NCBI RefSeq assembly: GCF_036365525.1
Contig: NC_090375.1
Coordinates: 95,606,512 to 95,670,511, forward strand
Source: Heterodontus francisci
Lineage: Eukaryota
DNA: 64,000 nt
Direction of reading: 5' to 3'
Shown here: piece by piece, positions 5,265-56,120 of the stretch
Numbering within the stretch: position 1 is the stretch's first letter
Layout of the letters: every line of letters starts with the position of its first letter
Program-made: the position numbers and the translations under genes
Notes under the pieces: model-generated
Told to the model about the DNA's origin: nothing
Seen by the model: the letters and a program-made list of their open reading frames with translations, nothing else
Databases searched by the model: none

Positions 5265-5622
5265 ACATTTCAGTGCAGTACTGAGGGAATGATGCACTGT
5301 CAGAGGTACTATCATTCAGATGAAACATTAAACCAAGGCCTGTCTGCTCTTACAGGTGGACGTAAAAGATACCATAGCACTATTTTGAAGAAGAACAGGG
5401 GAGTTATTCCTGGTGTTCTGGTCAATATTTATCCTTCAATGCACACTACACAAACAGATAATCTGGTCATTATCACTTTGCTATTTGTGGGAGTTTGCTG
5501 TGTACAAATTGGCTGCTGCATTTCCTACATTACAACAGTCACTACATTTCAAAAAGTACTTCATTGGCTGTAAAGAACTTTGAGTTGTCCGGTGATCATG
5601 AAAGGCATTATATAAATGCACG
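5265..5622 (+). mobile_element. Deu-domain SINE (SacSINE1/AmnSINE-like) with L2-type tail
   Basis: cagtgcagtactgaggga...ctggtcattatcac..gctatttgtgggagtttgctgtg...gaaaggcattatataaatgca; second copy at 42200-42490. Confidence 0.75.
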
Positions 5623-6521
5623 TTTTTTTTCTTTTCGGGCGAGGAACATAAAAGTGTCTGAAGTAGTGAAAAGGCCCTGAGCAGATCACCCAACTATCAT
5701 CTGGAAATGGTGCAGAATCTGGTTCCACTGATATTCTTCCCCATGCAGCGATTTTCTGATGGAGGAGACGTCAGTGATGCCCAGATCCTTATGTTCAGGG
5801 GGCTTCTCTGGACTAGCTAGGAAATTCAACTTTATAAGCCTTTTGTGAAATTCATGCAAGCTGACAGCTGATGTGAGACCTGCTGAATCCCCAGGAAAGG
5901 CCTCAAACGTTTGACAGCCAAAACTATCAATCCTGGGATGGATCAATCACCCACAAGAAAGATTTCTTAATCTCAAGAGGTGAAGGCACAGAATTAAAGA
6001 TCTTGTGCTTGAAAGTAATGTATTAGCATGGATTGAAGATTAGTTAAATTTGAGGGTTGAACCTTTGGACTTCTTTATCCCAGAGCCATCGATGCTCAGT
6101 CATTGAGTGCATTCAAGTCAGAGATCGATAGATTTTTGGATACTAAGGCATGTGGGTAATTGATCTGCCTCACTCCAGCATTCCAGACCTATGTTGGTGT
6201 AAACGCTGCTGAAGTTACTTTACTGGCACGATGCACCTAATCCGAGCATGCAAATGATACCATTTCTGCAACCTGCGGCAAGACCTGCATCTGTAGCTGT
6301 AGGTGCCTGCATGTTCAGCTCTGCTGCACTTAAGGGGTAGAGGAGGAACCTTGGAATTTCTAGACTGGAGCTATTAGAATTTATGTCATCTAGATCGCTA
6401 CCTTATCTGTAATAACATTCTGCAACTCACATGGTCAGTGTCATACATTTTCTCATCATAAAGTTTTGTACTGTGCATTCATTAAGCCCACTTCATTTGG
6501 ATCTTTAGTAAGAAGAAACAC

Positions 6522-17995: not shown

Positions 17996-19186
17996 TGTTA
18001 CGGCCAAACCAGGAAAAGGCTGAGCGGGGAGCCCTAGACTCCTTCCTCACCTGGTCATAAGGTGAGGAAGGGGTCTCGGGCTCCCCTCTCGGCCTTTTCC
18101 AGGTTTGGACATAACAGTGTTTAACTTGTAAAACACAATGGTTTTTTTAGCTTCTCCTCAGTGAGTCCTTGCTCACTGCTCTCTAATTGTAATTGTAAAA
18201 GAATCAGCCAAACAGATTTTCACAGATTTAAACAAAAAAAAGTGCAAGTTTATCAATCTTAAAACTCTAACTCAGTTAAAACTACCAAAAATACACGACG
18301 CAACCGTGCTAGCATGCATATGCGATGAACACACACACACACAAATAGATACAGAGGAGGAGAAAAAATTAAAGGGGGGAAGGTTTGAAGTAGTAGATGG
18401 AATTCAGTTACTGGTTTTGGGTTGGATGTAAAGTCTTTGATTGAAGTTAAGTCTTGCAGTTCTTGTTGGGGCCTAGTGCACACTTTTAAACTTGTTTCGC
18501 TGGTACCAGAAGGTTGCAGGGGTCTTCTGTCTCAAGGCTTAAGTTACTTCCATAGGTCCCTGGAACTTTGCGTGAGAGAGAGACAGAGAGAAAGAGAGAC
18601 CTTGCTTCTCTTTTGATCTTCAAAAACGGTCTGTCCCAACTTTACTGTGAGCACAATTCAATCAATTACCAGGTTGGCCAGCAGGTTAGTAATGTGATTA
18701 GCTCTTTGTTTGAGACAGCATAACCTGTGAAGCTTCTTCAAAGCTCACTGGACACACTCAGTGGGGAGGTGGAATGCTGGCTTTTACACAAGACAATAGA
18801 GTTATAGAATCACAGAGTCATAGAGTTATACAGCAGAGAAATAGTCCCTTCGGCCCATCGTGAAATGACTCTCAATGTCTTTTGATCATTACTATTGACA
18901 CCTTCCCAAGGGCAATTAGGGATGGGCAATAAATGCTAGCCTAGCAAGCGATGCCCACATCCCATGAATGAATTAAAAAAAAACCCATCTGGCTAATTGG
19001 ATCAGGGAACACTTCCATTGTTTCACTGTCCAACTGTGTCTCAGAATGCAAATGTGCAGCCATGTTGTCAGCCACTGCTCTGTGCTCTTTTTAAACAAGT
19101 TATTTTCAATGTCCCGTAAGCGTTCAAATAGCATCCATATGATGAAATTAATATGTTTCCATTTGGCAGGTGTGGTTTCCGTCACA
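17996..19186 (-). mobile_element. Solo LTR of the same family as 38122-39033, with a terminal inverted duplication and two nested LINE tails
   Basis: tgttacgg...ccgtcaca termini; perfect 4-bp TSD agtc (17992-17995 / 19187-19190); nested CR1 tail about 18797-18862(-) and LINE-A tail about 18905-18983(+). Confidence 0.88.
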
Positions 19187-19639
19187 AGTCCCATCCTCAG
19201 ATACTGAAGCAGTCCATGTCCACATGCAGCAGGACCTGAACAACATTTAGGCTTGGCTGATAACTAGCAAGCAACACTTGCACCACACAAGTGCCAGGAA
19301 ATGAACATCTCCAACTGGACAAAATCCAACTATCTCCCCTTGACCTTCAATGGCATTACCATTGCTGAATTTCCCACCATCAACACCCAAGGGGTTACAA
19401 TTGATCAGAAACTTAACTGGGCCTGCCACCTAAATACCATAGCTACAGGAACATTCTGCAGGACGTTGCTCACCTCCTGACTTCCCAAAATCTGTCCACC
19501 TTCTACAAGGCACAAATCAGGAGACTGATGGAATACTTTCCACTTGTCTGGATAAATGCAGCTCGAACAACGCTCAAAAATCTCAACACCATCCAGGTCA
19601 AAGCAGTCCGCTTGATCCACCACCTTAATGAACTTAGCT

Positions 19640-30770: not shown

Positions 30771-31049
30771 TTGGGTTAACAAACAGCTGTGTGACTTGGT
30801 TGCTTGGTCAAACCGCTGGAACAGAGGGTGGGCTATCAGTAAGGTTCCCTGAGTTCCATCAGGGAATCCGCCGAGAGAATTGTGAAAAGCTCAGTTGCCA
30901 AGGCAGGGTTGTCTCTGCATTGACAGTGATCTGCAGGTCATAGGGTCACCTTGCATGGGTTCATACACCCTTAATTCTTGGACCCTTGTGGCTTGATGCG
31001 CTGCCTCTGATGGAGGGAGGGCCAAGACACAGCTGCGCCTGCCCGTGAA

Positions 31050-32146
31050 GCTCCACAATGAGATCAACAGCAGCTGACCATGCCAAGAAGGGCCCACCTG
31101 TGCCAGAGAATGCACCGGACCTGACTCAGCTACCTCTAAATGTCTGAGGACCATTGTTAATGAGAACTACGGCTCTCCAGGGAGGCTGTCACTGATTTAT
31201 GCACCCTGCTGCAGAACGAGTTGACACCTGTGGGATTCGGGGTCACCCAATGCCAGTGGCCCTGAAGATCACAGTGGCACTAAACCTCTGCATATCTGGA
31301 TCTTTCCAGGGATCCACTGGGGACATGTGTTGGGTCTCACAGGCAGCAGCCCACCACTGCATCGAGGAGGTGACTGATGCCCTGTTCAAGAGGGCTTACG
31401 ACAATGTGCGGTACTGAACTGAGCCTGACAGTCAAGCTGAGAGGGCCATCTGAGACATCGTTGGATTCCCTCAGGTGCAATGTGTAATAGATTGCACACA
31501 TGTGGTCAACAAGGCTCTTATGGACCAGCCAGCCACCTTCATCAACAGGAAGGGCTTCTATTCAATCAATGTTCAACTTGTCTGCCACCACCAAAAGCAA
31601 TTCCTGCAGGTCTGTGCCTGCTTCCCAGGAAGCAGCCACAACGCCTACACACTTTGGCAGTCCCAGATGCCACAGCTTTTCAAGCCCCCCGCTTGCCTTC
31701 AGGGATGGATTCTGGAGAACAGGGGCTACCCAGTGAAGACATGGCTTCTGGCACCTGTGAGGAACCCTGGCAATGCAGCAGAGGAGAGGTACAACAATTG
31801 CCATGGCTCCACCTGAGCAACCATTGAGCAGGCCATTGGGCTACTGAAGATGAGATTCCGCTGCCTCAATCGATGTGGTGGAGTCTGGCAGTATGCCCCG
31901 GCAAGGGTCTTGCGTATCGTTGTGGTCTGCTGTGCTCTGCACGATCTAGCACTGCACAGCGGGGAGGCCCTACATGATGATGCAATGCCTGAGAGGCACT
32001 CCTCCACTGGTGAAATGGATGCAGAGGAGGGAGAGGGACCAGCAGCAATGGATGTTGAAGACATGGTGCTGGAGGCCAGACAGGTTGAGAGACCCTCAAA
32101 GGAGGCAAGAGAGGAGCTCATAACTACCTATTTCCAGTCACCATGA
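31050..32146 (+). pseudogene. Harbinger (HARBI1-like DDE) transposase, inactivated
   Basis: LKITVALN..SGSFQ..GD..VSQ, GFPQVQCVIDCTHV, NRKGFYSINVQLVC, FPGSSHNA, ENRGYP, IEQAIGLLKMRFRCL; internal stops (e.g. 31415, 31814) and degenerate acidic motifs. Confidence 0.92.
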
Positions 32147-32492
32147 TGTCCACTCACTGAGAATGCAACAAGCACTCACCTTCAGGCATGAATTCTGTCA
32201 CATCCTTCCCATTTGTGTTCCCTGACTTGCGACAAGTTGCAATGCGGACTAGTGCCCATGGAAGAACATATGTTAATAAGGGCTCTCATCACATTGGCAT
32301 GTTAATGAGGGATGTGGTCACATCGGTATTGCTCTAAGGGGGAAGGGGACGTCAACAGCTCACAATTCAGACAGAATGGCAGAGGCGTTCATACAATGAA
32401 ACCTAATGATTTGAACAAAGAATCTTTTAATTAATTAACACAAAACATATAAGATACACCCATGGGACCCAAAGTGTGGCAATGTGCTCTTC

Positions 32493-34560
32493 TTAATACA
32501 TTTGCGGGTGCTCAAATCTGGTGTGATCCAGCAGCAGCTGCTGATCAGGATGCCCCTTAGCCTGCGATGACTTTGGCTGGTGTCCTCTGCCTGCCTGAGG
32601 CCTGGAAGGCTCCGGCTGCCTGCGGGTATTCTGGACTGGTGCAGGACTCCTCTGAGGCGTCGCTGCTTCTGCAGCTGGGCTCACTGGCAGAGGGGCTGAG
32701 GAACCTGTGGTCACACTTAGAGCATCCTCAGGGGAGCCCCCAAATGTGGCTGTCAGCCTCTCCTCCTCCCTTTGAAGGCTCTCTTGAGTCTCCCAGCTCA
32801 CCAGAGAAGTATTAGGAGCTGGAGAAGCCTCCAGGCTCTTGTTTCTTCTCTCACCTTGCTGCTGCTGCATCGAGCTCATGGCCAAGATGTTGGTGTGCAG
32901 CATCTGTGGGATCTGGCTCTCCATGTGGGTCACCAACCTCTTGATGGAGCAATCTATGCATTCATAGGCCTGAGACATGGCAGCAGTCATGGCATAGATG
33001 GCTTCCTCCATCGTCTGCTTATGGTTGCACATGACCTCTGGCATCTCTACCATTTGCTGCCATATCCCTCTCTGCAACTCCAGCATGTCCTGTGCTGTTG
33101 ACACCAGAGGGTCATCATCGGCCTGGGGCTCAGCATGGGCCTGGCCACCCACAGTCCTCCGACTGTCCAAGGCCTTGGTTGTCTCAGCCTCTGCCAGCTG
33201 CTCAGGTGCATGTGTGGTGCTCTCACCAGCTTGTGACCTTGATTCTAATGCCGAGCAGGTATACACTGAGGTGAAAGTATCTGCACTACAGAAGGGTGGA
33301 GAGAGTCATGGGATGGAGCTCTTCTTCAGAGGTGGACGACTGTCCCCATGTGGCTGCGGACCCCTGCAAATGGCAATCTGCATGAGAAAACACAAACATG
33401 TGAGGGTTAGGTTGTGTAGTTCTCCTGATGCCAACTATGCATGATGTGGGTCTCCAATATTGATGCACATGCCGATGGGAGCCAATCTTCACTCTCTTGT
33501 GCGGAGATTCCAACCCCCCTGTCTGATATTGCAGGGCTGCCATGAGTGCTCGCCAGCTCCAAGGCCTCTTCCTCAGGGAGATGAGTGGATGTAGATCTGG
33601 GAGTCCTCTGTCTGTGTGGGCCGTATCCTGGCTGCAGGCCATTCATATATGGTGTCTCACCACCTGCACATCCTGCCTTTTAACTAGCCTTGAAAGTACC
33701 TGAGCTGGTGGTGGTGAGTGTGAGAGAGTGTGACGAGAGAGCGTGACAGTGTTTCCTCTTCATCACTGTCTTCATGCTCTTGGGGAAAGCAAGGGATGCA
33801 TGCTTACACCGTCTGCAGCTTGTAAATCAGAACAGATTGTAGGATGAGGTGTAAGTGGGATGTGAGAAGCAGGATTTGGTATAAGTATACTGCCATCTTC
33901 AATGCTTTCAGCCCTGCTCCTGGCGATGGCCTCAGTCATGACTGTTCCAATGATGGCGAGCACCGTCTCCTCCATGCAGGTAAGGACATACAACTATTCC
34001 TTTTTCACCACCAATTAGGTCCTGCTGCCTCCAGTTATGTGCCCCCTTGCAAATGAAGTGTGCCAGTGAGTGGTGTGCAATGTATTTGGGTGATGTGGCT
34101 GTCATGGTTGAATTAGCTAGCAATGTGTGCAAGCTGTGACACTTTGTTGTAAGGTTTTTAGCAGTGCTAAGTGTGTGAGGGTGAGGTGAAGCTATGAATG
34201 TTATGTATGAGTCGTGATTGATAGAGATTGTGTGCAGGTGAGTAATGACGGTGCGGTGCATTTAGCAGCGTGTGAAGCTAGTGGTGCAGCCGTTGAGATT
34301 TGGCAAATGAAATTGAATTGACCTTGGTCTTTTGTGTGAGGTCATTGAGCTTCTTGCAGCACTGCATTCAAAGCCCCCGGAGCTAGAATCCTAGCATTGA
34401 AAGTCACAGCTATCTGCCTTCGCACAGTTTGTCTGGAGGACCTCCTGGCCCCCTGAGGATGTAGGACACCTCTCCTCTGGTCCATCTCTTCCATCAAGGA
34501 ATCTAGACTAGTGTTCTCTGCCCTGTTGCATCGTGATTCAATGTTCTTCTTGCTCACACT
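32493..34560 (-). pseudogene. Harbinger second gene: multi-exon Myb/SANT-like DNA-binding protein, degenerate
   Basis: SLDSLMEEMDQRRGVLHPQGARR..QIAVTFNA.. then QCCKKLNDLT after a frameshift; long low-complexity last exon (ORF 32493-33266) after a ttgcag acceptor near 33363. Confidence 0.75.
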
Positions 34561-35644
34561 CTCTTCTGCAGCCAGTTCAAGCACCTTCTCCAGCCAGAAT
34601 GCATGTCCCCTTTAAGAGTTGCAGGCTAGTTTTAAGTGGTTTAAGCATCACACAAGCATGGGCCCCATGACATGACTTGAATTCGCTCAGTGGGGCATTT
34701 AGCACAATGTTTACTTGCTGCCTGAATCGAAAGCAATGTGTGCAGGTTAATTACGCATTGCGATACCCATGCCTGTTCTCGGGCCATGTTCAATTTTTTG
34801 GCCTTTTTGTCTTATAATTTTTATTTTCTTGAAAAACAATTCTGTCCATAGTTGAAAAGAATGTAGGGTAAATATAAAATGTGGCACGGAGCTTTATATA
34901 TGAGGAAGGCCTAGCATTGTACCATTACATTTTTGCATTCATGGAGATTTGAGTCAACTACTTTACACAGAGGACATGGGCCTGAAGTTCTGTGGATCTT
35001 TCTTCCTAGAGATGTGCCTTCAGGGAAATTCCATTGCTGGCCCTACCATAGTATTCAGTACCAGCAGAGTTTCCCTAATTAGCATGAAATGGGTCGACAC
35101 TCCTATTCCATCATAATGGAGTAAGTAATGCAGCTCATTTTATGCCCAGCAGCTCAAGCCCTGGGTTAGTTTGAGAAGGGACTATCAGCATCCCAGCTGA
35201 TCATGTCCACACATGCACCTTTCTTTAATGTTCAGGCAAGGGCCTAGCCCTGAACTCCAGGTGAATCTATTATAGTGCAGGATGAGCCACTCCTCTGTTT
35301 ATCCTGGTGTCGTCACTGCCCAACAGTCCCAGCCTGAAAATTCTATTCCCGCATACCATGTCACCCACCCATTAACAGGGATGGATGGATGTTACATTCA
35401 AGATAGCTTCTGCCATCCCCACTGTTAATCATAATGCATGTCGGGACCCAACATGTTCGGGACAGCTTAATTTTTGGATTTTCTGCTGTACTTCTGACAG
35501 ATTTACAATCGGATAATGCTAGAAAGAGCTATGTATATTCAGAACAATGGATTCACGCTGCTTGAAGTGGCAGTAGATTTGGATATTGGTCCAAAAATTG
35601 CTGTTAAAATAATGGTGAGGCTAATATCTTTGCAGTTATTTATG

Positions 35645-37303: not shown

Positions 37304-37960
37304 CATAGAATCATAGAATAGTTACAGCACAGAAGAAGAACATTCAGCGAGCTCTCTGCAAGAACAACTCAGCTCGTCCCGCTGCCCCTGCCCTTTCCCT
37401 GTAACCCTGCAATTTTTTCTCTTCGGGTGCTTATCCAATTCCCTTCTTTAGCCCCAATTGTACCTGCCTCCACCGCACTCTCAGGCAGTGCATTCCAGAT
37501 CCCAACCACTCGCTGCGTAATAAAGTTCTTCTTCATGTTGCCATTGCTTCTTTTGCCAATTACCTTAAATCGGTGTCCTCTGGTTCTTGACCTTTCCATC
37601 AATGGGAACAGTTTCTCTCTATCTACTCTGTCCAGACCCCTCATGATTTTGAACACCTCTATCAAATCTCCTCCCAACCTTCTCTCCTCTAAGGAGGACA
37701 ACCCAATCTACCCATGTAACTGAAGTCCCTCATCCCTGGAACCATTCTTGTAAATCTTTTCCGCACCCTGTCTAAACCCTTCACATCCTTTCGAAAGTGC
37801 GGTGCCCAGAATTGGGCACAATATTCCAGTTGAGGCCGTACTAGTTTTACAAAGGTTCATCATAACTGCCTTGCTTTTGTACTGTATGCCTCTGTTTCTA
37901 AAGCCCCAGATCCCATATGCCTTTTTAATCTCTTTCTCAACCTGCCCTGCACCTTCAACT
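37304..37960 (-). mobile_element. CR1 LINE 3' fragment
   Basis: SLEERRLGGDLIEVFKIMRGLDRVDREKLFP...TRGH; (ttctatga)n tail. Confidence 0.92.
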
Positions 37961-37961
37961 C

Positions 37962-39640
37962 ATGGAACATAAGAAATAAGCGCAAGATTGGGCTATACAG
38001 TCCCTTAAGCCTGCTTTGTCATTTAAAAAGATCATGGCTGAACTTTTACATCAACATCACTTTCCAGCCCTATCCCATATCCTTTAATTCCCTTCATGCC
38101 TTAAAACCTATCGCTAACTGTTGTGACGAAATCACACCTGCTAAATGGAAATGCATTAATTTCATCATATGGGACACTACCAAAATTTTTTTTACTGGAC
38201 ATTGCACAGAACGTGTTTAAGAGAAACAGAACTGAGCGGCTGATCTGAGAGATCGTTGAATAGAGAGACAATGGGAGTGCTCACTGATTCAATTAACAAG
38301 ATTGATCTGGGCAATCATAATAATCAACCTTCTTTGTCTGTGCAAGATCGAGCGCTCCACACCCCAACGAGTGTAACTGGAGAAATTTGAGAATCAACAA
38401 CCCATGCAGAAGATGCTGTTTCAATCAAAGTGCTGGTCACATGACTTACCTGCTAGCCAGACTGGAGGCTGTTTGAATTGTGCCTCACAGAAGGTCTCTG
38501 CTCTCTCTGTCTCTCTCTCAAGCAAAGTCCAAGGGGCCCACAGCAGCAGCTTAAGCCTTAAGACAGAAGACTTCTTCAGCCTTCTGGTACCAGAGAAGCA
38601 CATTTGAAAGTATGTATTGGGACCCAGCAAGAACTCCAAGACCGCAATTTCAACCAAGGACTTTGCAGCAAACCAAAAGACAGTAACTGAATTCCATTTA
38701 CTACTCCAAACCCCCCCATAATTCTTTCTCCCCCTCTGTATCTATTTGTGTGTGTGTTTATATTGTATGCATGCTAGCGTGGTTGTGTCGTGTATTTTAG
38801 TAATTTTAACTGAGTTAGAGTGATAAGGCTAATAAACTTACATCTTTCTTGTTTAAACCTAAGAAAACCTGTCCAGTTGGTTCATTTGCAATTACAATTA
38901 GAGAGCAGTGAGCAAGGACTCACTGACGTGTTAAACTAAAAACACTGTGTTTTAAAAGTTAAACCCTGTTACGGCCAAACCATGAAAGGGGCAAGAGGGG
39001 AACCTGAGACTCCATCCTCACCCGGTCTAAACACTATCTAGAATATATGCATCCACAACCATATGGGGTAGAAAATTCCAAAGACTTAAAACCCTCTAAG
39101 GAAGGAAGGAATTTCTCCACGCCTCTGTTCTAGATGACCAATCCACTATCCTGAGACTATGACCTCTAGTTCCAGACTCATCAGCTAAGGGAAACAGCTT
39201 CTCAGCATCTCCTCTGTCAAGCCCTCCAAGAATTTTATACATTTCAATGGGATCAACCCAGATTCTTCTAAACTCCAGAGAATATAAGGTCCATTCTACT
39301 CAATCTCCTCCTAGGACAGACCTTTCATTCCAGGAATCTATCTCGTGAATTTTGTTGCAATTTTATAAGGCAAGCATATTATTCCTTTGGTAAGGAGATG
39401 AAAAATGTATACAGTACTCCAGGTGTTGTCGCACCAAAGCCCTATATAATTGCAGCAAGACTTCCATACCCTTATACACCAACCCCCTTGCAATAAAAGC
39501 TAATATACCATTTGCCTTTCTAATTACTTGCCAAACTGGCAAGTTAGCTCTCTGTGAATCATGTACAAGGATACCCAAATTCCTCTAAATATCAACATTT
39601 ACTAATTTCTCATCTTTTAAAAAATAAACGTAGTATGTCT
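37962..39640 (-). mobile_element. Older CR1 3' fragment split by a solo LTR
   Basis: VIRKANGILAFIARGLVYK..VLLQLYRALVRQHLEYC; 3' tail at 37962-38040; 5' truncation near 39635. Confidence 0.85.
38122..39033 (+). mobile_element. Solo LTR
   Basis: tgtgacg...aaca termini, TSD ctgt/ctat, aataaa at 38831; homologous to 18061-19186 reversed. Confidence 0.85.
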
Positions 39641-39746
39641 GACTATGACAGGTGAGATCAGCTAACTTCCTGCTCCAAATGGACAGACTGAGTGAGCACC
39701 TGAGGCACAGGGAAGGACCTTGAGGCCCTCTAGACTTGCCAATTAC

Positions 39747-40019
39747 CCCAAGGTATGTCGGCCCCTGCAAGAGGCTGGCATGCTGGATGCAACAGGAGTA
39801 TCTCCCCGTCATCGCCACTTAACTCAATCACTTTCATTGCCCGATATGTCTCATCCTGGTTGGGAAGCATATTGCTGGATTCAGCATCAGGGATCTCCTC
39901 ATCATTCCTCAGCCACGTCGCATTGATAGCCCATGGATAAAAGCCCATCACAAGAGAGTCTCCAGCACACACTCCCTCTCACTCATATTGCCAATGAACA
40001 CCTCCAGGGTGGCTTTCCT
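39747..40019 (-). pseudogene. Orphan MHC-like Ig C1-set exon (class I alpha-3 / class II membrane-proximal type), frameshifted
   Basis: EVFI...SLVMGFYPWAINATWLRNDEEIPD..SSNMLPNQDETY..MKVIEL..YSCCIQHASL..IPW; ctgcag acceptor, phase-1 TGG-G|gtaatt donor, 273 bp; first Cys codon reads TCT. Confidence 0.85.
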
Positions 40020-40529
40020 CTGCAGCGGTAAGTTCAGCAGCTAGCCAAGCCAGCATATTGTACCAATCTTAACACAATGTAATGTTGAGAAGTTTTTGTT
40101 ATAGTTTCCTGTGTATAAACACCCAGTATCTCAATTATTAGGTTGCTACCAAGAAAGGGTGAACAAATTCTTGTGCCACAAAGTTTCCCCGGCCACAGAA
40201 TTAGTCCAAGAGAGAGAAAAAAAAAATAAAAGATCACAAGTATTTAAAAACGGAAGGACTTGCATTTACATAGTATTTTATTGTCTTTAGGATATCCCAA
40301 AGTGCTTTATAGTCAATGAATTACTTTTGAAGAGTAGTTACTATTACTATTTTGTAGGAAAATGTGGCAGACAATTTTCAAAAAGCATAAATTTTAATTT
40401 TGAGAGCAAAAAATGTCCAGGGTATACTTCTGATTCAAACCATACTCTTGGGAAAATAGTGGTTGGAAATGCACAACTTTTCACTGAGAAAACTGCAACT
40501 GAATAGGAATCGTGTCCTGCTGGAGGAAG

Positions 40530-40912
40530 TTGAGCTTGAACCTGTCAGAGTATCCCACATTAATTCCCGTTTACTCATCACTCCTGCCCTTGATGACCTA
40601 CATTGGCTCCCAGTATCTCAAAACCTTAACTTTAAAGTTTTCATCCTCATCCCTTCCTGTCTCTGTGACCTCTTGAAGTCCTACAACCTGCACTGTGCTT
40701 TCAGCCGCCTAGGCTCCACAATCTGGAATTACCCCTCTAAAACCCATTAAGTCTTCACCCCCTTCTTTACCTTTAAGACTCCTTAAAATCTACTCCTTTG
40801 GCCAAGGTATGATCACCTTTTCTAATACCTCCTTGCTTGGCTTGGTGCACATTTTTCTTACGCCTTGGGACAGTTTGCCACATTAAATGAGCTTGATAAA
40901 CGTAAGGTGTTG
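40530..40912 (+). mobile_element. L2 LINE 3' end
   Basis: LITPALDDLHWLPVSQNLNFK; tail ccttgggacagtttgccacattaaa...ataaacgtaag. Confidence 0.75.
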
Positions 40913-42199: not shown

Positions 42200-42490
42200 T
42201 GGTTCTTCTTGCTCACATCGATGTAAAAGATCCCATAGTATTATTTCAAAGAAGAGCAGGTGTGTTATCCCTGCTGTCATGCTCAATATATTTCCCTCCA
42301 TCAACATCTCAAAAAGCAGATTACCTGGTCATTATCACATTGCTGTTTGTGGGAGTTTGCTGGTGTGCATACTGGCTGCTGTGTTTCCTGCATTACAACA
42401 ATGACAACTCTTCTAAAAGTACTTCATTGGCTGTAAAGCACCTTGAGATGTCCAGTGGATGTGAAAGGCGCTATATAAATGCAAGCCTTT
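42200..42490 (+). mobile_element. Deu-domain SINE, 5'-truncated
   Basis: Homologous to 5350-5622; ends gtgaaaggcgctatataaatgcaag. Confidence 0.8.
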
Positions 42491-42619
42491 CTTTTTTCTT
42501 TTATCTTTCATTTGGGTACTGTAGACCAGCGCTTATTGACAACCTCATGACTGCTTCTTGCCACCACAACCTGCTTCTTCTCCCCACGGGTACTGCACCA
42601 AGTACAGACCCCACTAACT

Positions 42620-43230
42620 CACTGTTTAACCCACCCAGGCTTCCAATCTGCTGGTATTCACAGGAATGGAACTCATGATGGTGCATCCTGAGGAAGATTG
42701 TCCTTCTCTGATATAATGTGTCTTCTTCATGGTCTTGCTGTTGCAAAGGACCTAGAGCAAAGGGACAAGAGATAGCATGGCAATAACAGACAGAGTACCA
42801 AGTGACTGGCTTTACAATGAAACTTGCAGTTGTTAAGCTGGCTAAATATGTGTTGTTTTGCTGTGTTTACAGGGGTACAAGTAATAGGCAGATTCCCTGC
42901 TCAAAGATGCTGCCCGCCTCAGTAGTTCTAATTCTCATTGCTCTTGGTCACTGGCTTCCAGTGTTCTCTGTTTATCTGGGAACAGATGCTGGGTGTTTCT
43001 CCCATGGTCTTACTCTTCTTCCTTGTGAAGCATTTCCTGCAATGAATCCAGGTCCTGGGGATGATGCCACTGGAACTCACAAGTTTAGTCATTTCTTTTC
43101 AGGTCTGCTGGGTGTGGATCTTTGGAATCTTCTTCCTATTTGTGGGGAAATGAATGGCCCACATTGCCCTCACCTCTTCTACCTCCACGACCTTCAGGGA
43201 GGCAACAGAGGAATTGAGGGCAGCTTGCAA
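42620..43230 (-). pseudogene. Remnant of a second Harbinger Myb/SANT-like gene
   Basis: SLKVVEVEEVRA..IHFPTNRKK....T*KEMTKLVSSSGIIPRTWIHCRKCF fits the Myb/SANT-like consensus; downstream exon after ctctag near 42751. Confidence 0.65.
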
Positions 43231-44009
43231 CTGATTTGGAAGAATCAACTCATTGCAGCAGTATTAGACAACTGTCTACTTTCTTTAAGAAGTGCATTCA
43301 CTCACTACACAGACCTCAGGAGGCCTGCGGGAAATCCCGCCCTAAGAGTGGGTTGGGAGCTAGTTCCCAATGCAATCGGGTGGACAATCAGCTACAAATG
43401 GATCCTAGAATTAGAAAAGACTAGCTTTCAAATTGGTAACATTCGACAGGTTTGACCCCATCTGCTCAGAACCCATTTCCAGTTAAAATTCCCTCTGTGG
43501 TCTCTTGGTCATGATACAAGTCTGTCCAGTTCAGCAGAGGCAGAAATCTTAAGGTTGCCAGGAATGTGTGGAGGGGTCTATAAACACAGATCCCTGGATA
43601 ACAAAACATCTTGTTGCATTTAAGAACATAAAAAGCTAAGAAATAGGAGCAGGAGTAGGCCATTCGGCCCTTCGAGCCCTCTCCACCATTCAATGAGATC
43701 ATCGCTGATCTTCTTTGTATTTGATGTCTTTTCTTAAACACACCACATCAATTCAATCATACATCCCATGAGAATCCCCAAGGAAATTTCCATCTTCCCC
43801 ACTTTAAATGGCAGCAACAATCAACACAATGAAGAAAAATCTTAGGAGGCAAGAAATAAACAATTGTAAAAGTGGCACACTACCCTGCAAAACTAACTAA
43901 TGCATCCAGCAAAATGCAGAAAAATGCTATCGCAACCCGCCAAAGAAATCTTTAACAATAATCTTTTTAGGAAAAACATTATACTTGAGCAAGCCAGGCC
44001 CCAGTATTT

Positions 44010-47000: not shown

Positions 47001-48262
47001 CCTGGTCTGGCCTACATGTGACTCCAGACCCACAGCAATGTGGTTGACTCTTAACTGCCCTCTGAAATGGCCTAGCAAGCCAGTCAGTTGTCAAGGGCAA
47101 TTAGGGATGGGCAACAAATGCTGGTTTTGCCAGTGACGCCCACATCCCTGAAAGTAAAAAAAGGCATTGATAGAGGATTGGCTAGCCAACAGGAAACAGA
47201 GAGTAGGCATAAATGTGTCATTTTCCTGGTTGGAAAGATGTAACGAGTGGTGTGCCATAGGGATCAATGCTGGGGCCTCAACTTTTTACAATTTATATAA
47301 ATGACTTGAATGAAGGGACCAAAGCAATGGTTGCTAAATTTGCTGATAACACAAAGATAGGTAGGAAAATAAGTTGTGAAGAGGACATAAGGAGGCTACA
47401 AAGGGATATAGATAGGTTAAGTGAGTGGCCAAAAATCTGGCAAATGGAGGATAATGTAGGAAAATGTGAAATTGTCAATTTTGGCAGGAAGACTAAAAGG
47501 AAGCAGATTATCTAAATGGTGAGAGATTGCAGGGCTCTGAGACACAGAGGGTTCTGGGTGTCCTAGTGCATGAATCGCAGGTTCAGCAAATAATTAGGGA
47601 AGTTAATAGAATGTTATCGTTTATTGCGAGGGGGAATTGAATGCAAAAGTAGGGAGGTTATGCTTCAGTTATACAGGGCTTTGGTGAGACCACATCTGGA
47701 GTACTGTGTACAGTATTGCTATCCCTATTTAAGGAAGGATGTAAATGCATTGGAAGCAGTTCAGAGAGGGTTTACTAGATTAATATCTGGAATGGGTGGG
47801 TTGTCTTATGAGGAAAGGTTGGACAGGCTAGGCTTGTATCCGCTGGAGTTTAGAAGAGGATGAGGCGGCTTGATTGAAACATATAGGATTCTGAGGGGTC
47901 TTGACAGGGTGGATGTGGAAAGGATGGTTCCCCTTGTGGAAGAATCTAGAACTAGGGGTCACTGTTTAAAAAAAAGGGGTCGCCCATTTAAGACAGAGAT
48001 GAGGAGAAATCCTTTCTCTCAGAGAGTTCTGAGTCTTTGGAACTCTCTTCCTCAAAAGGTAGTGGAAGCAGAGTCTGTAATATTTTTAAGGCAGAGGTAG
48101 ATAGATTCTTGATAAGCAAGGGGGTGAAAGGTTATCGGGTGTAGGCAAGAATGTGGACTCAAGGTTACACAATCAGATCAGCCATGATCTTATTGAATGG
48201 TGGAGCAGGCTGGAGGGGCCGAGTGGCCTACTCCTGCTCCTAATTTGTATGTTCGTATGTAC
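44010..48262 (+). mobile_element. Near-full-length CR1 LINE: ORF1 (SGNH esterase-like) + ORF2 (EN-RT) + 3' UTR, disrupted
   Basis: ORF1 NVMIVGDSIFRGID, GARVRDI, VVHVGTND; EN ORF 44907-45776; LDFQKAFDKVPH, KFADNTK; tail ggcctactcctgctcctaatttgtatgttcgtatgt. Confidence 0.95.
46775..47162 (+). mobile_element. tRNA-derived SINE with LINE-A tail, inserted in CR1 RT
   Basis: tagtggtaatgtcact...gggttcaaatccc head; tail aagggcaattagggatgggcaacaaatgctgg...gcccacatccc plus A-run; imperfect TSD gacat/ggcat. Confidence 0.87.
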
Positions 48263-48601: not shown

Positions 48602-49907
48602 ACATAAGAACATAGGAACATAGGAAATAGGAGCATGAGTAGGCCATTTGTCCCCTCGAGCCTGCTCCGCCATTCAACCAGATCATGGCTGATCTTCTAC
48701 ATCAATGCTATTTTCCCGCACTATCCCCATATCCCTTGATTTCTTTAATATCAAGAAATCTATCGATTTCTGTCTTGAAATAATAACTGATTCTCGCTAG
48801 TCTCTTGGTTCTTTGGTATTTCTGGGAGGTTTTTTGTATCTTCCTCCGTGAAAACAGACACGAAGTATTTGGTTAGTTTCTCTACCATTTCCTTATTCCC
48901 CTGTCTCTGCCTGTAACGGGCTGACAATGGCTTTGCTAATCTTTTCCTTTTTACATACCTATAGAAGCTTTTACAGTCTGTTTATATGTTTCTCGCCAAT
49001 TTACTCTCATATTCTATTTTCTCCTTCTTTATCAGTTTCTTGGTCCTCCTTTGCTGAATTCTAAAATGCTTCCAATCCTCAGGCTTACTTTATTTTGTCA
49101 ACTTTATAAGCCTGTTCCTTTGATCTAATATAATCTTTATCTTCGCTTGTTAGCCATGGTTGGATCACCTACCCTGTTGGGTTTTTGTGTCTCAAAGGAA
49201 TGTAAATTTGCCGTAAATCATGTATTAATTCTTTAAATGCTAGCCATTGCCTGTCTACCATCATACCTTTTAATGTAGTTTTACAATCTATCACAGCCAA
49301 CTTGCCCCTCATATCTTGGTAGTTTCCTTTGTTTAGATTTAAGACCCTAGTTTCAGATTGAATTATATTACTTTCAAACTTAATGTAAAATTCTATCATA
49401 TTATGGCCACTCTTCCCTTGAGGGTCCTATAGCAGATGATTAATTAGCCCTTTCTCATTGCACAATACCAGATCTAAAATAACCCATTCTCTAGTTGGTT
49501 CCACATCAAATTGTTCTAGAAAAGCATCTTGTATAGATTCCAGGAATTCGTCCGACACAGCATTCGTGCTAATTAGGTTTACCAAGCCTATTTGTAGATT
49601 CAAGTCCCCCATGATTACTGTATTACCCTTGTTACATGCACCTCTAATTTCCTGATTTATATTGTGCCCTATATTATCACTCCTGTTTAGTGTCCTATAA
49701 ACAACCCCTAACAATGTTTGCCATCCATTGCTGTTTCATAGCTCTACTCAAACTGATTCTACACTTCAATCCAAGATCCTCTCTCACTAACATACTGATC
49801 TCATCTTTTATTAACAGTGCTACCTTACCTCCTTTTCTTTTTTGCCTATCCTTCCTAAATGTCAAATACCCTTGAACCTTCAGTTCCCAGCCTTGGTCAC
49901 CCTGCAG
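48602..49907 (-). mobile_element. CR1 LINE (3' tail plus EN region, RT deleted); continues at 54315
   Basis: LQGDQGWELKVQGYLTFRKDR, MGDLNL, HNMIEF; (ttcctatg)n tail at 48602-48625. Confidence 0.88.
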
Positions 49908-50513: not shown

Positions 50514-53500
50514 ATGAAATCACACAGTTTACTTGTTAGGGCCCCTGCTCAGGGATAGGAGCTAACAATCCCACTGCCTTTTGGGCACGTTGGGTGAGAC
50601 CAAGGCTAAGGGAGTAAACCCTAACAGAAAATCCAGAGCAGAACCCCTCAGGTGGTGATGTGTCACCTTTGGCATATTTCTGGCAGTTCCCGCAGCCATA
50701 CCAGTGCCAAACGTCGTGCTCTGCACTCCTTTGGATCCCACTAGGAAGACCGAGAGGGGGGTTTTGACGCTTGGGCAACTCACAACCTCCATACATTCCG
50801 CCCAGGCATGCTCCATGGAGAGGTCACTCCATAGTCGCCTCACAGCGACCAAAACAACATGGAAGGCAGCAGTTACGGGTTATAAGTCCAGCTCAATTGG
50901 CATAGAGATTGGGCGCCATTGGTTGCCTTTGTCGATGGGAGAGGTCATCGCATCTCACTGGACAGCTACCGCCCGCCTCAAACCGGGCAGCCCCTGGTCA
51001 GTAAGGTTCTGTCCCACCACAGTCCACCTGCTTCAATGGGTGCTTGGAGCTGAGGGTCATTGCCCGACAAGTGGACTGTAACACCGCACCAAACAGCATG
51101 ACACAAAAAGGAAAGAAGGCACCAGCCCTTCGTTTTGGAAGCTGGAACGTCAGAACTATGTGTCCTGGCCTGTTGGAAGACCTTACACAAATCAACGACT
51201 CTGTGAAGACCGCCATCATTAACAATGAGCTCAGTAGACTCAATATGGACATTGCAGCACTTCAGGAGACATGACTCCTGCGAGCGGATCTCTAAGTGAG
51301 AAGACTACACCTTCTACTGGCAGGGCAGGGATCCTGAAGAACCAAGACAGCGTGGAGTGGGCTTCGCCATCAGAAACTCTTTGTTCAGCATGATAGAGCC
51401 TCCCTCAAATGGCTCGGAACGCATACTGTCCATCTGACTGCTCACTGCCTCTGGTCCAGTACACTTACTCAGCATCTATGCTCCAACACTCTGCTACTCA
51501 CATGAAGTTAAAGACCAGTTCTACGAGGAACTCCATAATATTATTAGTAGCATTCCCAATACCTAACATTTGTTCCTGCTGGGGGACTTTAATGCCAGGG
51601 TTGGGGCCGACCATGACTCCTGCCTTGGGCGCTATGCCATTGGAAGGATGAATGAGAATGGACAGAGACTGCTGGTGTTGTGTACCTATCATAACCTCTG
51701 CATCACCAACTCATTCTTTTACAATAAACCCTGTCACCAGGTTTTAATGGAGGTACCCAAGATCACGTCATTGGCACCAGCTAGATCTCATCGTCACAAG
51801 GCGAGCCTCTATAAACAGTGTTCAAATCACATGCAGCTTCCACAGTGTGGACTGCGACACTGACCACTCTCTGGTGTGCATCAAAGTTAGACTCAAACCA
51901 AAGAAGCTGCATCACTCCAAGCAGAAGGGCTGCCCACGCATCAACACTAACAGAATTTCTTATCCACAGCTGTTACATTAGTTTCTAAATTCACTTGAAA
52001 AAGCCCTTCTGCAGGGGATGCAGAGACCAAGTGGGCCCACATCAGAGACACCATCTATGACTCAGCAATGACCACCTTTGGCAAATGTGAGAAGCAGAAT
52101 GCAGACTGGTTTCAATCTCACTTTGAAGAGCTGGATCCTGTCATGGCCGCTAAGCGCATTGCACTGTTGAACTACAAGAAGGCCACCAGCGAGTTAACAT
52201 CCGTAGCACTTAAAGCAGCCAGAAGCGCTGTACAAAGAACAGCTAGGCGCTGTGCAAATGACTACTGGCAACACCTATGCAGTCATGTTCAACTGGCCTC
52301 CGACACCGGCAACATCAGAGGAATGTATGACGGCATTAAGAGAGCTTTTGGGCCAACCATCAAGAAGATCGCCCCCCTCAAGTCTAAATCAGGGGACACG
52401 ATCACTGACCAACGCAAGCAAATGGACCGCTGGGTGGAGCACTACCTAGAACTGTACTCCAGGGAAAATGTTATCACTGATACCGCCCTCAGTGCAGCCC
52501 GGTCTTTGCCAGTCATGGATGAGCTGGACGAACAGCCAACAAAATCAAAACTCAGTGATGCCATTGATACTCCAGCCAGTAGAAAAGCCCCTGGAAAGGA
52601 CGGCATTACCCCTGAAATAATCAAGAGAGTCAAGCCTGCTATACGCTCAGCACTCCATGAACTGTTTTGCCTGTGCTGGGATGAGGGAGTAGTACCACAG
52701 GACATGCGCGATGCCAATATCATCACCCTCTATAAGAACAAAGGTGACCGCGGTGACTGCAACAACTACCGTGGAATCTCCCTGCTCAGCATAGTGGGGA
52801 AAGTCTTCACTCGAGTCATTTTAAATAGACTCCAGAAGCTGGCTGAGCGTGTCTACCCTGAGGCACAGTGCGGCTTTCAAGCAGAGAGATGCACCATTGA
52901 CATGCTGTTCTCCCTTCGCCAGCTACAGGAGAAATGCCACGAACAACAGATGCGTTGCTTTCATAGATCTCACCAAAGCCTTTGACCTCGTCAGCAGACG
53001 TGGTCTCTTCAGATTTCTAGCAAAGATTGGATGTCCACCAAAGCTACTAAGTATCAACACCTCATTCCATGACAATATGAAAGGCACAATTTAGCATAAC
53101 AGTGCGTCATCAGACCCCTTTCCTATCCTGAGTGGCATGAAACAGGGCTGTGTTCTCGCACCTACACTGTTTGGGATCTTCTTCTCACTGCTGCTCTCAC
53201 ATGCATTCAAGTCTTCAGAAGAAGGAATTTTCCTCCACACAAGATCAGGTGGCAGGTTGTTCAACCTTGCCCGTCTTAGAGCGAAGACCAAAGTACGGAA
53301 GGTCCTCTTTGCTGACGATGCTGTATTAACATCCCACACAGAAGAGTGTCTGCAGAGGCTCATCGACAGGTTTGCGGCTGCCTGCAACAAATTTGGCCTA
53401 ACCATCAGCCTCAAGAAAACGAACATCATGGGACAGGACGTCAGAAATACTCCATCCATCAATATCGGCAACCAAGCTCCGGAAGTGGTTCAAGAGTTCA

Positions 53501-54307
53501 CCTACCTAGGCTCAACTATCACCAGTAACCTGTCTCTCGATGCAGAAATCAACAAGCGCATGGGAAAGGAGTCCGCTGCTATGTCCAGACTGGTCAAGAG
53601 GGTGTGGGAAAATGGCGCACTGACACGGAACACAAAAGTCCGAGTGTATCAAGCCTGTATCCTCAGTACCTTGTTCTACGGTAGCGAGGGCTGAACAACG
53701 TATGTCAGCCAACAGCGACATCTCAACTCATTCCATCTTCGCTGCCTCCGGAGAATCCTTGGCATCAGGTGGCAGGACCATATCTCCAATGCAGAAGTCC
53801 TCGAGGCGGCCAACATCCCCAGCATATACACCCTACTGAGCTAGTGGCGCTTGAGATGGCTTGGCCATGTGAGCCGCATGGAAGATGGCAGGATCCCCAA
53901 GGACGCATTGTACAGCAAGCTTGTCACTGGTATCAGACCTACCGGCCGTCCATGTCTCCGCTTTAAAGATGTGGCAAACGCAACATGAAGTCCTGTGACA
54001 TTGACCACAAGTGGTGGTAGTCAGTTGCCAGTGATCGCCAGAGCTGGCGGATAGCCATAAAGGTAGGGTTAAAGAGTGGTGAGTCGAAGAGACTTAGCAG
54101 TTGGCAGGAAAAAAGACAGAAGCGCAAGGAGAGAGCCAACTGTGTAACAGCCCCGACAACCAATTTTATCTGCAGCACCAGGGGAAGAGTCTGTCACTCT
54201 AGAATTGGCCTTTATAGCCACTCCAGGCGCTGCTTCACAAACCACTGACCACCTCTAGGTGCTTACCCATTGTCTCGAGAGACAAGGAGGCCAAAGAAGA
54301 AGAAGAC
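50514..54307 (+). mobile_element. Near-full-length RTE-clade LINE (EN-RT, C-terminal zinc finger), disrupted
   Basis: FGSWNVRT, DIAALQET, LLGDFNARVG, NYRGISLLS, FIDLTKAFD, GMKQGCVLAPTLF, LFADDA, ICST..RVCHSRIGLYSH; (gaa)n tail. Confidence 0.95.
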
Positions 54308-55081: not shown

Positions 55082-56120
55082 TATACAAACATACGAACCT
55101 ATGAATTAGGAGCAGAAGTAGCCGTTTGGCCCCTTTGTGCTTGCTCCACCATTTAATAAGATCATGGCTGATCTGACTGTGGCCTCAACTCCACTTTCCC
55201 GCCTACCCCTCATATCCTTTGACTCCCTTGTTAGTCAAGAATTTATCTACCTCTGCCTTAAAAATATTCAATGACCCTGCCTCCACCGCTCTCTGGGGAA
55301 GAGAATTCCAAAGACTCACAACTCTCTGAGAGGAAATATTTCTCCTCAGCGCCGTCTTAAATGGGGGACCCCTTATTTTTAAACCGTGTTCCCTCGTTCT
55401 AGTCTCTCCCACAAGGGAAAACATCCTTCCAACATCCACCCTGTCAGGTCCCCTCACGATCCTATGTGTTTCAATAAGATCACCTCTCATTCTTCTAAAC
55501 TCCAATGGATACAGACCCAACCTGTCCAACCTTTCCTCATATGGTAACACCCCCACCCCATCCCAGGTATCAGTCGAGTGAACCTTCTCTGCACTGCCTC
55601 TAACACATTTATATCCTTTCTCAAATAAGGAGACCAAAATTGTAGAGTACTCCAGTGTGGTCTCACCAATACCCTATACAACTGTAGCAAAAAATCCCTA
55701 CTTTTATATTCCATTCCCCTTGCAATAAATGACAACATTCCTTTGCCTTCCTGGTGGACACCAGTGTGATCCACGGCAACCACATCTGCAGAGTTCTGCA
55801 ATCTCTCACCATTTAAATAATATGCTGCTTCACTATTCTTCCTACCAAAGTGGATAACTTCCCAATTTCCCACATTATACTCCATTTTCCAAATCTTTGC
55901 CCACTCTCTTAACCTATCTATATCCCTTTGCAGACTCCTTATGTCCTCTTCACAACCTACTTTCCTACCTATCTTTGTGTCATCAGCAAATTTAGCAACC
56001 ATACATTTGGTCCCTTCATCCAAATTACTGATATAAATTGTAAATAGTTGAGGCCCCAGCACAGATCCCTGTGGCACTCCACTAGTTATAGCTTGCCAAT
56101 CTGAAAAAGGCCCATTTATC
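55082..56120 (-). mobile_element. CR1 RT-3' fragment nested in CR1 ORF1
   Basis: SGVPQGSVLGPQLF, KFADDTK, YEERLDRLGL; tail at 55082-55180. Confidence 0.9.

Follow-up and report, generated by a model that had tools for sequence, protein, structure and literature searches.

The DNA analyzed here, a 64,000-nucleotide stretch of the Heterodontus francisci genome (hereafter the window), carries on its minus strand what is probably (we put the likelihood at about 60%) a dead, old fragment of an MHC class Ib gene, retroposed from a partly spliced transcript that was copied by the machinery of a CR1 element. The fragment belongs to a lineage that we call group X, crosses a spliced exon junction, lies 5′ of a same-sense, truncated CR1 with its tail, and is accompanied by no other MHC exon in the window. 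The coordinates of the individual features are collected in Table 1.

Table 1. Features of the MHC-derived fragment and the adjoining CR1 element (positions are those of the window).
Feature	Position	Strand	Basis or remark
Class I α3 (C1-set) exon, 266 nt	39747..40012	-	Pfam C1-set match and placement in the group X tree
End of α2 exon, last 13 nt (L-Q-R-K + G), joined to α3 with no intron	40013..40025	-	12.4 bits
Probable further α2 (exon 3) remnant	40026..40102	-	NKNF..HCVK vs NKYFK..DCVK
120-nt linker with donor-like GTAATT start	39627..39746	-	Intron 4 or decayed TM/cytoplasmic exon; part may be a CR1 relic
5′-truncated CR1-type LINE, C-terminal part of ORF2	39031..39626	-	66-68% to two other copies in the window
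~900-nt repeat interrupting the CR1, bounded by TG..CA and by eye similar to a solo LTR	38121..39030	.	Matches 18061-19187 at 67-80%
CR1 3′ end and tail, inferred continuation	37964..38120	-	Matches CR1 3′ ends

Identity and Decay of the α3 Exon

The C1 exon recognized in a preliminary description of this DNA is real, although alignment to its relatives places its start at 40012 rather than 40019, and thus gives it a length of 266 nt rather than the 273 nt of that description, which is the length found in the relatives. The motifs listed there (GFYP, TWLRN, LPNQD.TY, YSC.IQHASL and the terminal W-G|gt) are all present on the minus strand, and the MHC origin read from them holds as well. The middle frame matches the Pfam C1-set family (PF07654) at 31.6 bits (cut-off 21, E 2e-07), a scan of the window with lineage-specific profiles gives the α3 exon 210 bits against a background of <29, and a PDB search with the same frame places class I-like chains at the top (9CH4, MR1, CD1), with class II and IgE chains far weaker. 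The domain groups with class I and not with non-MHC C1 domains.

The exon carries three frameshifts, with indels of net -4 (~39960), -2 (~39801) and -1 (~39761), as sized by hand reading against the relatives and against the loose ends of a parent-like contig described below. The first of these deletes the first Cys codon of α3, as had already been noted, together with several frameshifts, from the sequence. None of the four frame pieces contains a stop codon. With its frame broken and one of its two cysteines gone, the α3 copy is a pseudogene.

Placement in a Class Ib Clade

A search of 1.84 billion representatives with the fragment returned 65 matches, and from an alignment of those in sharks and coelacanth we obtained 142 class I proteins, of which 120 were listed. 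When the fragment was aligned in a frameshift-aware manner to 159 stored proteins (those longer than 700 aa being left out), the best 12 were all members of group X, with scores of 321 to 194; one UGA protein ties the twelfth group X score, and two skate members of group X score lower, at 178 and 151. An α3 tree of 55 rows places the window copy among 17 group X rows with a support of 95/91, with its branch position inside the group being without support, and the nearest α3 identity (71% over 84 columns) is to the basking shark protein P0079, also of group X. In a second tree, built on α1-3 with 35 rows and with the window copy left out, group X, UGA, UFA and UEA-type sequences form separate clades, those of group X and UGA both with a support of 100, and the sister link of group X and UGA is without resolution. 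The trees, in which W-category, class II, B2M and UDA rows were left out, group the window copy with none of UAA, UBA, UEA(UCA), UFA and UGA, and the placement among class I lineages called for in the preliminary description bears out the possibly non-classical shark origin proposed there.

Lineage labels were matched by eye to supplement S10 of PMC10751288, in the portion of that source available to us. In the same portion, and again by eye, group X matched none of UAA, UAA-2, UBA, UCA, UDA, UFA, UGA and UHA, nor did it resemble any of three UDA sequences. As judged from these alignments and trees, group X is a conserved elasmobranch class Ib clade, found in sharks and rays and distinct from the labelled lineages. 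Its named records come from Pristiophorus, Heptranchias, Cetorhinus, Carcharodon, Mustelus and Scyliorhinus, and further from Hemiscyllium, Chiloscyllium, Stegostoma, Pristis, Mobula, Hypanus, Hemitrygon and Leucoraja. Most have one or two members, in contrast to the 11 near-identical ones of Heptranchias perlo (P0071, P0187-P0196). In several sharks, group X and other class Ib genes lie on contigs of equal size, and in Heptranchias the group X accession is consecutive with that of UGA on the same contig. A sawfish gene with the same product name, a match by name only, spans 21.8 kb and is classed as an MHC-Ib gene lying within the MHC. Our literature search found no name for group X, which may be an unnamed lineage; Almeida 2020/2021, a thesis and the work on UFA/UGA may name it. 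No Heterodontus protein of group X is among the matches listed, and the parent gene may be unannotated.

The window copy has the motifs YR.MK.IELSGDD and HASLLQG in common with its group X relatives, from which it differs in having no leader, no α1, only a small part of α2 and no intron 3, in addition to its frameshifts and lost Cys. Its best PDB match is shark UGA (nurse shark UGA, which is the 9CH4 sequence; P0035, P0204-P0209), and group X and UGA both carry AGFHG..KG and N.YFK.LLE.DC; however, identities to the middle frame of the window copy are 20-22/49 for UGA vs 29-36/49 for group X. The Callorhinchus sequence that S10 labels UGA (P0156-P0158) falls outside elasmobranch UGA in both trees.

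A 724-nt contig assembled from a DNA run, possibly of the source sample, is 80.5% alike to the fragment over 39801-39954 with no gaps (30 differences in 154 nt) and has an intact frame; at its loose end it encodes EGERVLRLSC, which is how the Cys region broken in the window looks when undamaged. Since a parent-like locus exists, the lineage is not lost, and the idea that the fragment may record a divergent MHC lineage finds no support: living sharks and rays still carry the clade, and this frame-intact relative is present in the same sample.

One tract of the exon stands apart. The residues AINATWLRNDE, encoded at 39898-39930 on the minus strand, are identical to the UFA protein P0144 (11/11), whereas group X matches only 5-7/11, and the parent-like contig differs from the window copy over this tract. 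At the DNA level, UFA and the window have 7 differences in 42 nt here. Either a short stretch was converted by a UFA gene, or three changes coincided by chance. Loose ends of run contigs at 39902-39943 both translate to 20/20 residues of Heterodontus francisci UFA P0144, and in three possible-RNA runs only a UFA-type transcript matched over 42 nt, which has no bearing on expression.

A Spliced Junction between α2 and α3

The relatives have a phase-1 intron exactly at the α2/α3 junction: the gene models P0033, P0083 and P0040 continue into intron sequence, those of P0111 and P0060 skip at this position, and the domain files (S10) in the part of PMC10751288 available to us are cut at the same spot. 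In the window, by contrast, the 14 nt 5′ of the true α3 start score 12.4 bits as an α2 end and -2.9 bits as an acceptor (the acceptor and donor matrices being generic), and the sequence before 40012 is purine-rich. Null anchors scored as high as the α2-end LQRK in 0/1500 cases in an anchored protein test and in 0-2/600 cases in a second anchored test; each null test was run with three to four gap-penalty sets, and the whole range is given here and below. The copy is not a lone exon, the α2 end being directly attached to it. Because there is no acceptor at the exon start, and α2 codons are joined at the site of the relatives' intron, the loss of intron 3 exactly at this junction, as compared with the proteins of the relatives and not with parent DNA, points to splicing and thus to an RNA intermediate.

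If the fragment were instead a single genomic exon still flanked by intron sequence, and had travelled either as DNA or as RNA that was never spliced, LQRK would have arisen by chance with a 7-nt insertion. The splicing does rest on a single junction, the donor is intact, and the earlier-proposed CAG acceptor at 40020 scores 5.8 bits, in the top 6.5% of 8880 AG sites, but it sits 7 nt out of register with the exon start of the relatives, and those 7 nt together with six more encode the α2 end LQRK. By coincidence, the inserted nucleotides would have to read R-K-(A), following L-Q in register, which, with the scarcity of null anchors matching LQRK and the purine richness just 5′ of the α3 start, makes this account quite improbable in our view, and the capture of a lone exon as DNA, one of two routes suggested in the preliminary description, conflicts with the spliced junction.

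The firm α2 signal spans only 13-14 nt. The stretch immediately 5′ of it is aligned to α2 in 11 of the best 14 alignments listed from the frameshift-aware search, but nulls reach the match beyond LQRK, to ~40100, in 176/1500 cases (21-139/600 when anchored), and the stretch alone has a local p of ~0.006-0.06 (5-45/800 nulls). On this alignment evidence we take it as a probable, not firm, further remnant of α2, with the 5′ truncation point likely near 40100. Unanchored protein-profile scans separated neither the α2 tail nor a TM remnant from background. A by-eye α2 match at 40110-40190 was rejected, as no model backed it.

The 3′ Linker

The intron-like sequence 3′ of the exon, previously put at about 110 bp, measures 120 nt from the donor-like GT (39746) to the first alignable CR1 base (39626). 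Its description as intron-like is likely correct, given that its first 6 nt score 4.3 bits as a donor vs -8.4 as a TM exon start; this donor is equalled by 13.7% of 6650 GT sites. By eye, the start of the linker also resembles the KLQV read-through in gene model P0076. From these scores, intron 4 was probably kept on the 3′ side of α3.

The linker could instead derive from a connecting-peptide/TM/cytoplasmic exon that has decayed and been shortened by an internal deletion, in which case the fragment would be a retrocopy of a fully spliced mRNA, with the CR1 either joined by template switch or a later insertion in which the 3′ part was lost. Against P0073 and P0079, ASLEGLKV aligns with ASQGGLKV and WSRKLADLT with WRQRPSDVT, and the TM model gives p ~0.015-0.10. 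Nevertheless, the TM-like match is reached by 21-67/800 and 9-61/600 nulls, the anchored protein test for TM scored 0, and the WSRK stretch also resembles the HFGRK codons of CR1 by eye, such that a TM remnant in the linker is weakly supported. As the donor-like start of the linker does not suit a TM exon, and as the window profile scan found no remaining mRNA beyond the CR1, we consider a fully spliced source unlikely.

The CR1 Element and Neighboring Repeats

A same-strand, 5′-truncated CR1 does lie 3′ of the exon, as previously described, in the same sense and with its tail present. It is alignable from 39626, is split by the ~900-nt repeat and ends near 37964, and its last part matches the CR1 3′ ends at 48615-48773, 48175-48254 and 55150-55229. 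The CR1 family name and the tail motif are provisional assignments, as are the names SINE and LTR-like for repeats of the window. The copy has no poly(A) tail, and its 3′ end is the CR1.

No target-site duplication (TSD) of at least 7 nt encloses exon and CR1, there being no 7-mer common to 40090-40260 and 37930-37975, and at 20% decay a TSD could have been erased. An exact 13-nt direct repeat (40122-40134 and 40609-40621, 487 nt apart), probably a chance occurrence, was rejected as a TSD, as was a 6-mer candidate. The Jukes-Cantor (JC) branch of the CR1, estimated with no subfamily consensus, is 0.34 vs 0.23 for fragment to relative, and by this measure the CR1 looks older than the MHC fragment or of another subfamily. 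This difference fits either an older, intronic CR1 or a different subfamily, and thus co-insertion of CR1 and fragment is not shown. Of the LINE template switch envisaged in the preliminary description, a LINE-linked, RNA-based move is retained, whereas the switch itself finds no TSD beside it and shares the field with an intronic or later-inserted CR1.

Both copies of the TG..CA repeat (38121-39030 and 18061-19187) sit inside a LINE. Just upstream of the fragment lies a SINE-tail-like repeat (40224-40387) that recurs at 5496-5623 and 42397-42513, followed at ~40500-40750 on the plus strand by what is, from its motif, presumably an L2-like 3′ end.

The Fragment Stands Alone in the Window

Lineage-specific profiles found no α1, α2 or TM exon elsewhere in the window (24 kb upstream and 39 kb downstream). 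The best background scores for α1/α2/TM are 25/28/24 bits, compared to at least 93/120/28 bits for planted decayed exons, and TM is thus the weakest of these negatives (28 vs 24 bits). tblastn with the 65 protein matches showed no further MHC-like sequence outside the fragment, and an upstream search with α1 and α2 of six distant class I proteins gave none either. Of 163 candidate ORFs in the non-repeated sequence, 149 were searched against Pfam along with one more; this search, which short exons could escape, gave nothing above cut-off and named no host gene or MHC-region neighbor. Rfam and metagenome scans came back empty, and a word-seeded protein search with the α3 middle frame returned no match. 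The earlier statement that peptide-binding-domain and TM exons are missing is therefore right for separate α1, α2 and TM exons in the window, and has to be amended for the attached LQRK end of α2; that the fragment lies outside any MHC gene holds within the 64 kb and reaches no further.

These searches bear on whether the fragment is a resident pseudogene of an MHC class Ib cluster that deletions and repeats have worn down, for which the preliminary description had pointed to α1/α2 exons upstream on the minus strand; the profiles looked for such exons and found none. Group X is multicopy in Heptranchias (the 11 near-identical members), and the UFA-identical tract could represent local gene conversion. 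However, the lack of further MHC exons and of MHC-region genes across the 64 kb argues against residence, erosion does not account for the exact loss of an intron, and we regard this origin as highly improbable.

Proposed Origin and Comparison with Known Systems

Retroposition from a partly spliced transcript would have proceeded as follows. A nuclear transcript of the parent, with intron 3 removed and intron 4 still in place, would have been reverse-transcribed by CR1 machinery, presumably primed at the CR1 3′ tail. The reverse transcriptase would have jumped from CR1 RNA to MHC RNA ~120 nt into intron 4, or else the CR1 was already resident in intron 4 of the parent and co-transcribed. Synthesis would then have passed α3, crossed the spliced junction and halted inside α2, putatively near 40100. 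As it has no promoter, leader or α1, such a copy would have been dead on arrival, and the fragment presumably does nothing today. The three frameshifts, and the repeat insertion that splits the CR1, would have come later.

The dead MHC copy itself is of an ordinary, common kind. A count of 14,081 retrocopies in cartilaginous fish, with CR1 or Tx1 credited outside mammals, is given in the part of 10.64898/2026.06.26.734816 available to us. The window copy resembles the processed pseudogenes of these fish in its spliced junction, 5′ truncation and decay, but has no poly(A), ends in CR1 and probably has its second junction unspliced. LINE 3′-tail recognition and template switching by the CR1 reverse transcriptase are described in PMC3747384 and PMC5729268, and 10.1101/2025.02.02.635956 reports both kinds of LINE/mRNA chimera, as far as these sources could be consulted. 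Like LINE 5′ chimeras (mRNA/LINE-1, and the CR1 template-switch PittSINE), the window copy has cellular RNA 5′ of a same-sense LINE; unlike them, it has no TSD that could be found, internal rather than first exons, and CR1 instead of L1. It would be a case of a LINE with 3′-tail recognition copying host RNA. CR1-driven retroposition of an MHC transcript requires germline expression of the parent gene, and presence or absence of the copy across sharks would date it.

In the consulted part of PMC10751288, elasmobranch class Ib genes all lie within the MHC, in a search that needed >50% query cover. This mapping stands, as it concerns genes and the window copy is a fragment. PMC12562908, likewise consulted in part, distinguishes the lineages UBA, UEA, UDA, UFA and UGA and terms UFA and UGA CD1-like. 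Group X would be a candidate third CD1/MR1-like molecule beside these two. A bolder reading, which joins a CR1-primed chimera outside the MHC, an 11-codon tract converted from UFA, and group X as an undescribed class Ib lineage maintained in both sharks and rays beside the CD1-like UGA, is offered tentatively, and we consider it doubtful as a whole.

Other Elements of the Window

The region 31000-34600 is, by eye, what we take to be a decayed Harbinger/PIF-like transposon, with DDE nuclease-like frames at 31454-32146 and a Myb-like frame near 34342-34611. On the plus strand, 51000-54100 is presumably a long RTE-type LINE whose frames run to 328 and 199 codons. A 222-codon open frame with no Pfam match occupies non-repeated DNA at 42787-43455 (plus strand).
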